Sequence record: PV340549 | DNA: 54,435 bases | From: Escherichia phage PhiR12_1 | Direction: 5' to 3' (one strand) | Part shown: positions 18,397 to 21,138 of the stretch, piece by piece | How the letters are laid out: each line of letters opens with the position of its first letter | Numbering within the stretch: the stretch's first letter is position 1 | Made by a program: the position numbers and the translations under genes | The notes under the pieces: generated by a model | The model's database searches: none | What the model was told of the DNA's origin: nothing | The model's input: the letters and a program-made list of their open reading frames with translations, nothing else

Positions 18397-18404
18397 CCAT
18401 AATA
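18374..18404 (+). promoter_or_regulatory. late promoter pR'-like
   Basis: -35 TTGACA (18374-18379), about 18-bp spacer, -10 CATAAT (18398-18403), overlapping the Q 3' end and followed by tR'. Confidence 0.45.
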
Positions 18405-18443
18405 TTCACATATGCTGCTGCTTTTGCATTCAGCAACCATCAC

Positions 18444-18469
18444 AAGCCCACCTCCTGTGGGCTTTTTTG
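18444..18469 (+). terminator. tR'-like Rho-independent terminator
   Basis: aagcccac-ctcct-gtgggctt followed by tttttt. Confidence 0.75.
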
Positions 18470-18902
18470 CATTCGCGTGCAATCAAAACAAGAGTCTTAG
18501 TGATATGGGCCTGAGATATGGTGGTGGAAACATCGCTCCGCTCTTGGCTGTCATATCTACGCGAACAGGCTCTATCCCTAAGGTAAAGCGATGAAAGAAA
18601 TAAAATTAACGCCAGAAATGGTGCTTTCTGTTGTTGATTACAATCCATCATCAGGCGATTAGCAGGGTATCAGTTACCCGTTGAAATTTTTAAATACCTC
18701 ACAATTCAGGCGGTTGACTGTTGTCTGGTTTGCGGGGAGTTTGTTAAAAGAAACTGGCATGGTGAATCCCCCTGTGCGGAGGGGCAATCAGCAACTGGTG
18801 TTTTGTCACCGACCCTTATCCTTTCTGTGCGGGTTCAGGTGCTGATACTGAACTCACCGGGAGGCACCCGGCACCATGCAATGGCACATAGCGCCACTCT
18901 CC

Positions 18903-18962
18903 AGCCCCTCTCCGGAGGGGCTTTCTTATGGACAAAAAAAGCCCGCGCTGGGAGACGCGGGC
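18903..18962. terminator. back-to-back convergent terminators in the Q-nanS interval
   Basis: Plus-strand hairpin gcccctc-tccg-gaggggc + tttctt (18903-18928); minus-strand hairpin gcccgcg...cgcgggc preceded by A7 (18934-18962). Confidence 0.5.
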
Positions 18963-19155
18963 GGCAAGGAATAAACAACAAAACGTGAAGTAATATTTCA
19001 GCTGGCGAATAATATCCGACAGTAATCACTCTGCGCAATAGCGCGGCCTTTTTCGTATTGCGGGCTGTAGTCTTCCTCCTGCCATTGTCCTGTAACTTCC
19101 GGACTTCAGCTCGCTCCTTATCTGACTCACAACATTATCCCGCCAGGGAGGATTC

Positions 19156-21138
19156 ATGACATTTAAACACTACGATGTGGTCAGGGCGGCGTCGCCGTCA
19201 GACCTTGCGGAGCGACTGACACAAAAACTGAAGGAGGGGTGGCAGCCATTTGGCAGCCCTGTCGCCATCACGCCTTATACCCTGATGCAGGCCATTGCGG
19301 CGGAAGGTGATGTCACCACACCGGTGGTGGTGCAACCGTCGGGTGATGGTGGCGCTGTTATCAGCACCACCAGCGAACCGGAATATTACTTTGTCATTGC
19401 GCTGGCCGGGCAGTCCAACTCGATGTCTTTTGGCGAGGGGCTGCCGCTGCCGGATACGTATGATCGTCCTGACCCGCGTATTAAGCAACTGGCGCGTCGC
19501 AGCACGGTGACACCGGGCGGTGCGGCCTGTGCATATAACGACATTATTCCTGCAGACCATTGTCTGCATGATGTGCAGGACGTGAGTAATCTGAATCACC
19601 CGAAAGCAGACCTCAATAAAGGGCAGTATGGCTGTGTGGGGCATGCCCTGCATGTGGCCAAAAAACTGCTGCCGTTTATGCCTGCCCGTGCGGGGATCCT
19701 TCTTGTCCCGTGTGGACGTGGCGATTCGGGATTTACTGCGGGAGCAGAGGGCGCGTTTAATGAGGCGTCGGGTGCGACAGCGGGCTCTTCCCTGTGGGGG
19801 GTGGATAAACCGTTGTATCGTGACCTGGTCAGCAGAACGCGTGCAGCCCTGAAGAAAAATCCGAAAAACGTGCTGTTGTCGGTGATCTGGATGCAGGGGG
19901 AAAAAGATGTCAGTTCGGGGAGACATGCAGAGCACAATGCACTTTTTCTTGCCATGGTAAATAAATACCGTGCAGACCTGGCAGATATTGCAGACCAGTG
20001 TATTGGCGGGACAACGTCCGGCGTCCCGTGGATTTGCGGTGACACCACGTACGACTGGAAGGCGAAGTATGCAGTGCAGTATGAGGCGGTTTACGGAGGC
20101 TATAAAGGCAAGGCGGCGCAGAATATTCACTTTGTGCCGTTGATGACGGATGAGCATGGTGCGAATGTGCCGACAAACGAGCCGTCAGAAGATCCGGACA
20201 TTATCACGGCGGGATACTATGGTGCCGCGTCACGCAGTAATGGTAACTGGACGACAGCCGATCGTAAAACGCACTTCAGCTCCTGGGCGCGAAGAGGCAT
20301 TGTTTCAGATCGGCTGGCAGGAGAGATACTGGTGCGAGCCGGGCGTTTGCTGCCGTTCCTGAGCGGGCAGTCTGCACCGCTGGCGACCACGCCAGCCTCC
20401 ACGGGGGATGCACAGTCTGGCTCTGCGGGTCCGACGCAACAGCAGGGTGCAGGTACTTCTGCAGGCGGTCATACTGAAGCCGTAACAAGAATGGTGGCCG
20501 GATATGATGCGAACAGTGGCAGTGGTGTATGGACAGAGCAGCAGTGGAATGCGTCCGGTGGTAAAGGCACTGTGACGGATGACAGTGGCAGGAAGGCGCT
20601 GCGACTGGAAAAACAGCCGGGTAAACTGACCTCCTGGAAGATGTTCCGTACTGTTGCGGTGGAGGAGGCAAAAAATCTTCTCAGTAAGGGAGGTGAAATT
20701 GCCGTGCGGTTTAAGATCCCGGAGGGTGTCGAACTGGTTAACGGTCAGTTTGTCTTTGGTCTGTACTGGCCGGTGTCGCAGTGGGCGTCAGGCGCGACAG
20801 CAAACAGCATGCTGGCGTCCTTCTTCCTTCAGACGGATGCATCAAATCTGAATCTGATGTACCACAAGGGGGAGTCGAATGCGCAACTGGGCACATTTGG
20901 GGCATTTGACCATAACTGGCATACAGTTGTTTTCCGCTTTGCGGGAAATAACAGCGAAAAAGTGGTGCCGGTGATTGATGATGCAGAGCAGTCTGCGTTT
21001 GACCTGGTGATGTGGACAAATGATGGCTTTACAGCAGATACGCTGACGCTGACAGATATCACGGGGGCAAAAGCGACGTATCCTGTACTGCTTGATACGG
21101 TCACAGTCAAAGTTAACGAAAGCCGGGCATCATCATAA
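19156..21138 (+). CDS. sialate O-acetylesterase-like protein (prophage NanS-p type)
   Basis: 660 aa; FVIALAGQSNSMSFGEG (GQSN-type esterase motif); position downstream of Q as in Stx-converting phages, but no stx genes present. Confidence 0.65.
   Translation: MTFKHYDVVRAASPSDLAERLTQKLKEGWQPFGSPVAITPYTLMQAIAAEGDVTTPVVVQPSGDGGAVISTTSEPEYYFVIALAGQSNSMSFGEGLPLPDTYDRPDPRIKQLARRSTVTPGGAACAYNDIIPADHCLHDVQDVSNLNHPKADLNKGQYGCVGHALHVAKKLLPFMPARAGILLVPCGRGDSGFTAGAEGAFNEASGATAGSSLWGVDKPLYRDLVSRTRAALKKNPKNVLLSVIWMQGEKDVSSGRHAEHNALFLAMVNKYRADLADIADQCIGGTTSGVPWICGDTTYDWKAKYAVQYEAVYGGYKGKAAQNIHFVPLMTDEHGANVPTNEPSEDPDIITAGYYGAASRSNGNWTTADRKTHFSSWARRGIVSDRLAGEILVRAGRLLPFLSGQSAPLATTPASTGDAQSGSAGPTQQQGAGTSAGGHTEAVTRMVAGYDANSGSGVWTEQQWNASGGKGTVTDDSGRKALRLEKQPGKLTSWKMFRTVAVEEAKNLLSKGGEIAVRFKIPEGVELVNGQFVFGLYWPVSQWASGATANSMLASFFLQTDASNLNLMYHKGESNAQLGTFGAFDHNWHTVVFRFAGNNSEKVVPVIDDAEQSAFDLVMWTNDGFTADTLTLTDITGAKATYPVLLDTVTVKVNESRASS

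Follow-up and report, generated by a model that had tools for sequence, protein, structure and literature searches.

We analyzed the late-gene control region of Escherichia phage PhiR12_1 in a window of 54,435 nucleotides (nt; the whole stretch of DNA under study, sequence record PV340549), with emphasis on the interval between the late antiterminator gene Q (17878-18396) and nanS-p (19156-21138), a gene for a phage sialate O-acetylesterase. The original prediction for this locus, made from the DNA letters, had listed Q, the late promoter pR' with its terminator tR', about 700 bp of non-coding DNA with opposed terminators at 18903-18962, and a gene for an esterase of 660 amino acids (aa), and had taken the layout for that of a Shiga toxin (Stx) phage. 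Pfam matches and promoter and terminator scans placed all of these features at or near the positions given for them. The gap between Q and nanS-p spans 18397-19155 (759 bp); no open reading frame (ORF) in it exceeds 73 aa, and its six small ORFs gave no family match in a scan against NCBIfam. The gap can be called non-coding as far as proteins are concerned, but it holds two small RNA (sRNA) genes, one recognized by its Rfam family and the other by its similarity to an RNA of enteropathogenic E. coli (EPEC). The terminator scan resolved the opposed terminators into one hairpin on the plus strand (18903-18922) and one on the minus strand (18962-18941) that runs into seven T. As judged from the two sRNA matches, these hairpins are the 3' ends of the convergent sRNAs, which abut each other with the plus-strand RNA ending at 18933 and the minus-strand RNA at 18934. 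They should be read as an sRNA pair and not as spacer. Both sRNA genes are unannotated at this locus in the GenBank and RefSeq records.

The plus-strand gene (18728-18933) belongs to the STnc100 family (Rfam RF02076), with the hairpin at 18903-18922 as its intrinsic terminator. It matched the family model over its full length (model positions 1-206) with 143.2 bits against a gathering score of 47, while the true 5' end is uncertain and falls within 18712-18757. The segment 18687-19249 is 91% identical to prophage Sp4 of E. coli O157:H7 Sakai, in which Hfq peaks obtained by cross-linking and analysis of cDNA (CRAC) were assigned to EcOnc05 (plus strand, ~222 nt) and to EcOnc08/EcOnc21 (minus strand, ~271 nt) (PMC4104026). 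The EcOnc05 peak maps to the body of the STnc100 homologue, and EcOnc08/EcOnc21 to the minus-strand terminator together with the sequence upstream of it. By this alignment, the STnc100 gene of the window is the orthologue of EcOnc05 (Sakai Sp4) and a relative of EcOnc27 and PasD. The orthologues EcOnc05 and EcOnc27 were both identified as expressed, Hfq-associated RNAs by CRAC and northern blot (PMC4104026), and we infer that the STnc100 RNA of the window would likewise be expressed and associated with Hfq. Its position after the slot for cargo ("moron") genes and before nanS-p, with an intrinsic terminator at its end, is the same in the five compared loci (L001, L003, L004, L005, and L006), and in the Stx2a phages WGPS6 and F039 a member of the family lies 75 nt after stx2B, as reported in PMC12370729. 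A 2026 preprint ties STnc100 to the PasD sRNAs of EPEC and to the gene order pasD, esterase, pasA/C, holin. PasD proper was considered as the identity of the plus-strand RNA and set aside in favor of an STnc100/EcOnc05 variant; both have the start GCAUGGUGAAUCC. On the strand opposite STnc100, RefSeq carries a pseudogene, "hypothetical protein, internal stop", at 3351-3491 (minus strand) of L004, which corresponds to 18747-18887 (minus strand) of the window. This pseudogene is probably an annotation artefact over the unannotated sRNA gene.

The minus-strand gene (18934-19115) encodes a predicted Hfq-type sRNA whose 5' end was taken from the EPEC RNA "E2348C_1409.E2348C_1408.IGR". The window (19115-18934, minus strand) is 96.2% identical to this RNA over all 182 nt, a stretch that covers both the seed and the terminator hairpin (18962-18941). 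The seed CCUUGCC, the complement of 18963-18969, is identical in the window and in the EPEC RNA (alignment A3). In EPEC the RNA was defined as an Hfq partner by RNA interaction by ligation and sequencing (RIL-seq), and its authors equate it with EcOnc08/21/42 of enterohemorrhagic E. coli (EHEC) (PMC8550237 Tables S3/S6). Its targets have in common the motif GGCAAGG or GGCAGGG, which complements the CCUUGCC that immediately precedes the terminator, and 767 chimeras with the 5' untranslated region of cfa were recorded (PMC8550237). The alignment identifies the minus-strand RNA of the window as orthologous to this sRNA of EPEC prophage PP6 and to EHEC EcOnc08/21/42. Compared with PP6 of strain E2348/69 (Pearl Mizrahi et al. 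2021, PMC8550237), the terminator of the window has a single difference, located in the loop, and the partner STnc100 gene, intact in the window, is split in PP6 by an IS4-like insertion, ISEc13 (L008 1600-3193). The convergent minus-strand sRNA of PP6 is intact despite ISEc13 and is the RNA detected by RIL-seq.

The minus-strand element was also examined as a member of the AsxR/AgvB group of anti-sRNAs and rejected as such: in 18300-19300 nothing matched the Rfam models RF02703 and RF02702 at E up to 10, and the element does not align with the published sequences of AsxR, AgvB, and EcOnc03. The traits of that family, a conserved 3' region of ~42 nt (GUAUCUCAUGC..GCCCGAACCC..CGGGC) and a length of 51-60 nt, were not found in the window, whereas phage F039 scored 88 bits in the same Rfam test. 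In F039, an Stx2a phage, the 53-nt anti-sRNA AsxR lies on the minus strand and abuts STnc100. Alignment A3 showed that conservation of the 5' part of the minus-strand gene, which runs antisense to the nanS-p leader, extends as far as F039, and that the 3' 95 nt form an alternative cassette of either the AsxR type or the CCUUGCC type. It is conceivable that the gene mainly yields an AsxR/AgvB-like anti-sRNA of ~55-60 nt from an internal promoter, which would sponge a core sRNA, and not a 182-nt sRNA that targets mRNAs. AsxR occupies exactly the aligned position in F039 and has its own promoter there, the Hfq peak EcOnc08 spans only the 3' 73 nt, and an extended -10-like motif, TGaAATATT at ~19004-18996 (read from the sequence), precedes the segment. 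We nevertheless consider this short form rather unlikely, since even E = 10 yielded no match to the AsxR and AgvB models, the family's conserved 3' 42 nt are absent, the orthologues were sized at ~271 nt by northern blot and 182 nt by RNA-seq, and the RIL-seq partners are mostly mRNAs. Because the conserved 5' part (~19031-19115) is complementary to the Q-dependent late transcript in its leader, immediately before nanS-p, the 182-nt sRNA might also have a dual role, its 5' part acting in cis on the nanS-p/late mRNA through processing or transcriptional interference and its 3' seed acting in trans on host mRNAs, with the site serving as a modular slot for swapping host-directed sRNA seeds. This we offer as a doubtful and speculative extension.

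Upstream of the sRNA pair, the 172-aa product of Q matched PF06530 (Phage_antitermQ) in Pfam with an E value of 8.6e-26 and the solved Q protein of phage 21 (PDB 6JNX, 6P18) with an E value of 3e-92 over residues 1-162. It is nearly identical to phage 21 Q over the first 102 residues and ~75% identical over the remainder. The best promoter-like (sigma-70) site found by a consensus scan of 17800-21900 lies at 18374-18403, with a -35 element TTGACA (18374-18379) inside the 3' end of Q, a spacer of 18 nt, and a -10 element CATAAT (18398-18403), matching the consensus at 11 of 12 positions. We infer that it functions as the late promoter pR'. A further -10-like hexamer, TATGCT, can be read at 18411-18416. 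The terminator tR' (18444-18464) consists of an 8-bp GC-rich hairpin followed by TTTTTG (terminator scan), and together with pR' it predicts a short constitutive transcript of ~60 nt (18410-18472), based on the terminator scan, the fold, and a putative start site. The predicted RNA of 63 nt, taken from ~18410, folds with -21.5 kcal/mol (z = -3.2). A Q homologous to that of phage 21, a strong sigma-70 promoter after it, and then an intrinsic terminator are the components of a phage-21-type late system, in which Q21 reportedly loads on RNA polymerase at a promoter-proximal pause and renders it terminator-resistant (the work behind PDB 6JNX and 6P18). The lysis genes of phage 21 follow directly after tR', whereas in the window the sRNA pair, nanS-p, DUF1378, and DUF826 are interposed; the holin of the window is, as in phage 21, of the P21 S type. 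In the families involved, pR' is constitutive and in lysogens is stopped at tR', yielding a short RNA such as lambda 6S or StxS (PMC7547250), of which the predicted pR'-tR' transcript is a positional analogue. A third plus-strand terminator-like hairpin was found in the nanS-p leader at 19031-19055 (terminator scan). On the minus strand it forms an internal stem of the convergent sRNA, and it is kept in Sp4, EPEC PP6, and the Stx2a phage F039, where only the loop changes.

We regard the locus as very probably the late-gene control region of a lambda-like temperate siphophage or prophage of E. coli, toxin-free and without protein cargo between tR' and the sRNA pair with nanS-p. In a lysogen, pR' would fire constitutively, and transcription would stop ~60 nt on at tR', with the STnc100 terminator and the 19031 hairpin as further stops. 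Upon induction, the phage-21-type Q would load on RNA polymerase at pR' and make it terminator-resistant, so that the Q-modified polymerase could pass the three terminators into nanS-p, the lysis genes (a pinholin of the S21 type, endolysin, and Rz), and the lambda-like virion genes. Two convergent sRNAs with their own 3' terminators would be made from the interval between tR' and nanS-p, STnc100 from the plus strand and the orthologue of the Hfq-bound EHEC/EPEC RNA from the minus strand. The minus-strand RNA would carry the same seed as its EPEC counterpart, an RNA that base-pairs with host mRNAs, the cfa leader among them. Most likely, both sRNAs are trans-acting regulators expressed in the lysogen and acting via Hfq on host mRNAs; for phages of the PhiR12 type, expression, Hfq binding, and targets are deduced here from the orthologues.

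Several observations weigh against such a role. A consensus scan found no promoter for STnc100, and the promoters of both sRNAs are not clearly identifiable. Two candidate -10 elements of STnc100 were picked out by eye, CACAAT at 18700-18705 and TGtTAAAAG at 18742-18750, each of which fits a different published RNA size. The sizes given for the orthologues disagree for the plus strand (172, 206, and 222-247 nt) as well as for the minus strand (182 vs ~271 nt), and the literature gives no proven function for STnc100 (PMC12370729). The 182-nt minus-strand RNA folds no better than shuffled sequence (z = -0.78), and its fold therefore gives no independent support. Such points leave some room for the view that the gap is an insulator only, in which a stack of terminators silences nanS-p and the lysis genes until Q is made and the sRNA-like sequences are unexpressed or without a role. 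The three plus-strand terminators between pR' and nanS-p fit this view, as do the lack of a clear sigma-70 promoter for STnc100 in the consensus scan and its unproven function. However, a minus-strand terminator makes no sense for insulating plus-strand late transcription, EHEC and EPEC have orthologues, 91-96% identical, that are abundant and bound to Hfq, seed and terminator are exactly conserved, and the module is kept in about half of the complete E. coli genomes. An insulator without functional sRNAs is on balance very improbable, and we retain the interpretation of the pair as trans-acting sRNAs of the lysogen.

The absence of cargo upstream of the sRNA pair could be traced to a recombination junction at 18649-18658, a 10-nt microhomology, CATCAGGCGA, that is common to both parental types of late region. 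In a three-way alignment (A2), the window equals the VR50 type (Q21-tR'-HNH) up to 18658 and the JE86 type (DUF3927-STnc100-nanS-p) from 18649, and the breakpoints given by megablast agree with this junction. An initial blastn search had suggested a 43-nt remnant of DUF3927 from 18619, which was discarded as the three-way alignment puts the true start of identity at 18649. The junction cuts off the HNH-endonuclease gene after its first 22-23 codons and leaves a chimeric ORF of 23 codons (18591-18662, plus strand) that runs from the HNH N-terminus into the stop codon of DUF3927. Its translation, MKEIKLTPEMVLSVVDYNPSSGD*, is the N-terminus of a 171-aa HNH protein from a prophage of E. coli VR50. 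Of 5426 complete E. coli genomes, 40 contain the left-hand segment (18465-18658), and in nearly all listed matches except NCTC9112 it is found, with the start of the HNH gene, directly after a Q gene of the Q21 type. Many prophages have the right-hand segment (18649-19155) at ~99% identity (98.8-99.2%), placed after DUF3927 or a hypothetical gene; the cargo of JE86-ST05 comprises a methyltransferase, three tRNAs, TerB, and DUF3927. The exact junction was found only in four PhiR12 phages (PhiR12_2, _2_star, _4, and _5) and in one genome, NCTC9112. Over 17878-21300, the window shares its sequence at 100% identity with a deposited temperate phage, Escherichia phage PhiR12_2 (PV340550.1), whose listed host is K-12 MG1655, and with three sibling phages, and as PhiR12_2 is an isolated phage, the hybrid late region is viable. 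No publication on PhiR12 was found in the paper library searched.

Since the window is of the HNH type on the left and of the DUF3927 type on the right, the cargo-free slot is, as read from the alignment, the scar of a microhomology recombination between two non-Stx late regions, without a remnant of stx, and not a vacated toxin site. The cargo-free state would have arisen when microhomology-mediated recombination at 18649-18658 joined a Q21-tR'-HNH late region to the 3'-terminal part of a DUF3927 gene, itself upstream of the sRNA genes and nanS-p. The slot is then a product of ordinary lambdoid mosaic recombination and no evidence for the loss of a toxin, and the 10-nt junction provides a clean worked example of how modules of late regions are shuffled. 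The module on its right side, with the sRNA genes and the nanS-p leader, is present in 2797 of the 5426 genomes, with a median of two copies per genome having any, and the layout is therefore best classed as a generic feature of lambdoid prophages and not as a signature of Stx phages.

The absence of stx and tRNA genes in the original prediction was borne out. With Stx2A and Stx2B as queries, tblastn gave a best E value of 0.6 against all 54 kb, and ARAGORN and Rfam found no tRNA gene in the window, including the ileZ/argN/argO genes usual downstream of Q. The locus thus lacks what marks a Stx-converting phage, namely stxA/stxB in the late region and tRNAs after Q. In the Stx2a phage WGPS6 the order is Q, three tRNAs, stx2AB, STnc100, and nanS-p, so the resemblance to the neighborhood of stx holds for the order of the conserved elements; what did not hold is its specificity, given the frequency of the module. 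An alignment of the interval from Q to the esterase gene, proposed in the original prediction, gave a divided result: similarity to WGPS6 and to Q21-type Stx2 phages extends through pR' and ends at 18418, that to WGPS6 resumes at 18699, and there is none between. Stx2a phages of the 933W/F039 and WGPS6 types carry Q, tRNAs, stx2AB, STnc100 (EcOnc27), AsxR, and nanS-p, whereas the window is without tRNAs and stx, has a minus-strand cassette that is not AsxR, and is only 71-83% identical to them. The empty toxin slot, that is, a former Stx phage whose toxin and tRNA genes were deleted to leave a site that could be refilled, is exceedingly improbable: Q and pR' indeed show 83% identity to their counterparts in Q21-type Stx2a/Stx2c phages, the value for STnc100 and nanS-p against the copies that flank stx2 is 71-76%, and the stx genes of Stx2a/Stx2c phages sit at exactly the same position, but non-Stx prophages are essentially identical to the window on either side of the junction (the left side with the HNH gene at least 99% in 38 of the 40 genomes, the right side 98.8-99.2% to prophages with DUF3927 or a hypothetical gene), no remnant of stx or of tRNA genes is left in the window, and the crossover lies inside the HNH and DUF3927 genes and not beside stx.

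The closest described counterpart is the moron site of Sakai Sp4, where EcOnc05 (plus strand) and EcOnc08/EcOnc21 (minus strand) converge upstream of ECs_1088 (PMC4104026). Sp4 and the window have in common the STnc100-type RNA, the opposed terminators, the minus-strand RNA, and the start of a nanS-p-like gene. They differ in the type of Q and in the cargo upstream, which in Sp4 consists of a CAAX protease, an AraC-type regulator, and three tRNAs and is absent from the window. The general layout was described by Tree et al. 2014 (PMC4104026) for the Sakai prophages Sp3, 4, 5, 9, 10, 11, 15, and 17. The arrangement is thus already known, as a deposited phage, as described families of sRNAs and esterases, and as convergent sRNAs at moron sites reported in 2014; the only additions made here are the reading of the two terminators as a convergent sRNA pair and the recombination junction at nucleotide level.

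The nanS-p gene (19156-21138, plus strand) encodes a three-domain protein of 660 aa with Pfam matches to DUF1737, SASA, and DUF6645. The DUF1737 domain comprises aa 3-50 (19162-19305; Pfam) and is followed by a NanS-like SGNH catalytic domain at aa 74-392 (19375-20331), which matched E. coli NanS (PDB 3PT5) with an E value of 1.1e-111, and by a lectin-like C-terminal domain with a jelly-roll fold (DUF6645) at aa 448-654 (20497-21117), which matched the C-terminal domain of a NanS-p (PDB 6YP6) with an E value of 6.7e-47. NanS employs Ser19 and His301 for catalysis; Gln18 sits in the oxyanion hole, and a catalytic Asp is lacking (PMC9063846). Loss of these residues would have spoken against an esterase; Gln86-Ser87 (in GQSN) and His373 (in RKTH), with catalytic codons at 19414-19416 (Ser87) and 20272-20274 (His373) by motif position, align with Gln18, Ser19, and His301 of NanS when the 11-residue tag of the PDB chain is allowed for. 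Because the catalytic residues of NanS are conserved, the assignment of the 660-aa product as a NanS-p-type esterase stands at the level of sequence. The NanS-p proteins of 933W and phi24B (gp84/vb_24B_21; 6YP6) have the same three-domain architecture, and they and chromosomal NanS (3PT5) share the catalytic Ser, His, and Gln with the window protein; block IV of the window protein reads RKTH in place of RSSH or RASH.

Three-domain enzymes of the NanS-p type are known from Stx and non-Stx prophages alike, where their induction accompanies that of the late genes, and esterase activity on Neu5,9Ac2 or mucin has been demonstrated for relatives (PMC10462455). In Stx phages, induction of nanS-p under phage-inducing conditions is documented in the literature. 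The enzyme of the window is expected to remove 9-O-acetyl groups from the sialic acids of mucin by means of a Ser87/His373 dyad with Gln86 in the oxyanion hole, and it would act once made or when released at lysis. According to a 2026 preprint, DUF1737 anchors NanS-p to the T=9 capsid of the podovirus phi24B (bioRxiv 10.64898/2026.04.10.717836). While phi24B is a T=9 podovirus with a capsid-binding DUF1737, the phage of the window is a lambda-like siphovirus.

The genes around the locus are those customary for a lambdoid phage. Upstream of Q, the window contains genes for NinB, two antirepressors, and NinG. Downstream of nanS-p are DUF1378, a holin of the P21 type (a pinholin of the S21 type), lysozyme (the endolysin), and Rz, with a DUF826 ORF also located between nanS-p and the holin gene. 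The virion module is of the lambda type and includes gpA terminase, lambda portal, S49 protease, gpE capsid, gpV tube, gpH tape measure, and gpJ. Between the DUF826 ORF and the holin gene, at 21798-21826 (plus strand), lies a strong terminator-like hairpin of 12 bp; in EPEC, the minus-strand sRNAs PasA/PasC occupy this position. EPEC PasD2 and PasA gave no blastn match in the whole window at E up to 0.01, and PasA/PasC are therefore absent between nanS-p and the holin gene. The lysis cassette is split, with a DUF1327 ORF (22083-22592, plus strand) and an ORF on the opposite strand (22540-23025, minus strand), annotated in PhiR12_2 as a DUF1823 gene, between holin and endolysin.

Two further sites with RNA elements next to antirepressor genes were observed in the window. 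At 15464-15664 (plus strand), three adjoining Rfam elements precede an antirepressor ORF (15719-16432), namely c4-a1b1 target sites with 45.8 bits (just below the gathering score of 46.7), isrK with 76 bits, and C4 antisense RNA with 74 bits. The trio lies directly 5' of this ORF6N/P22AR antirepressor and looks like an RNA-controlled antirepressor switch of the P1/P7 or Gifsy type within a lambdoid nin region. A P22-type sar antisense RNA (40150-40216, minus strand; 69 bits) abuts a second antirepressor (40218-41132, plus strand) with Bro-N and P22AR_C domains. Both sit between the tape-measure and tail-tip genes and resemble a P22 immI module transplanted into a lambda-type tail operon. The end of the window (54387-54435, minus strand) corresponds to the 3' end of a transfer-messenger RNA (tmRNA) gene (model positions 325-374), which suggests a prophage integrated at ssrA. 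Near this end, an ORF of 359 aa (52012-53091, plus strand) contains a YadA-like membrane anchor, typical of trimeric autotransporter adhesins, and is likely a cargo gene for lysogenic conversion.

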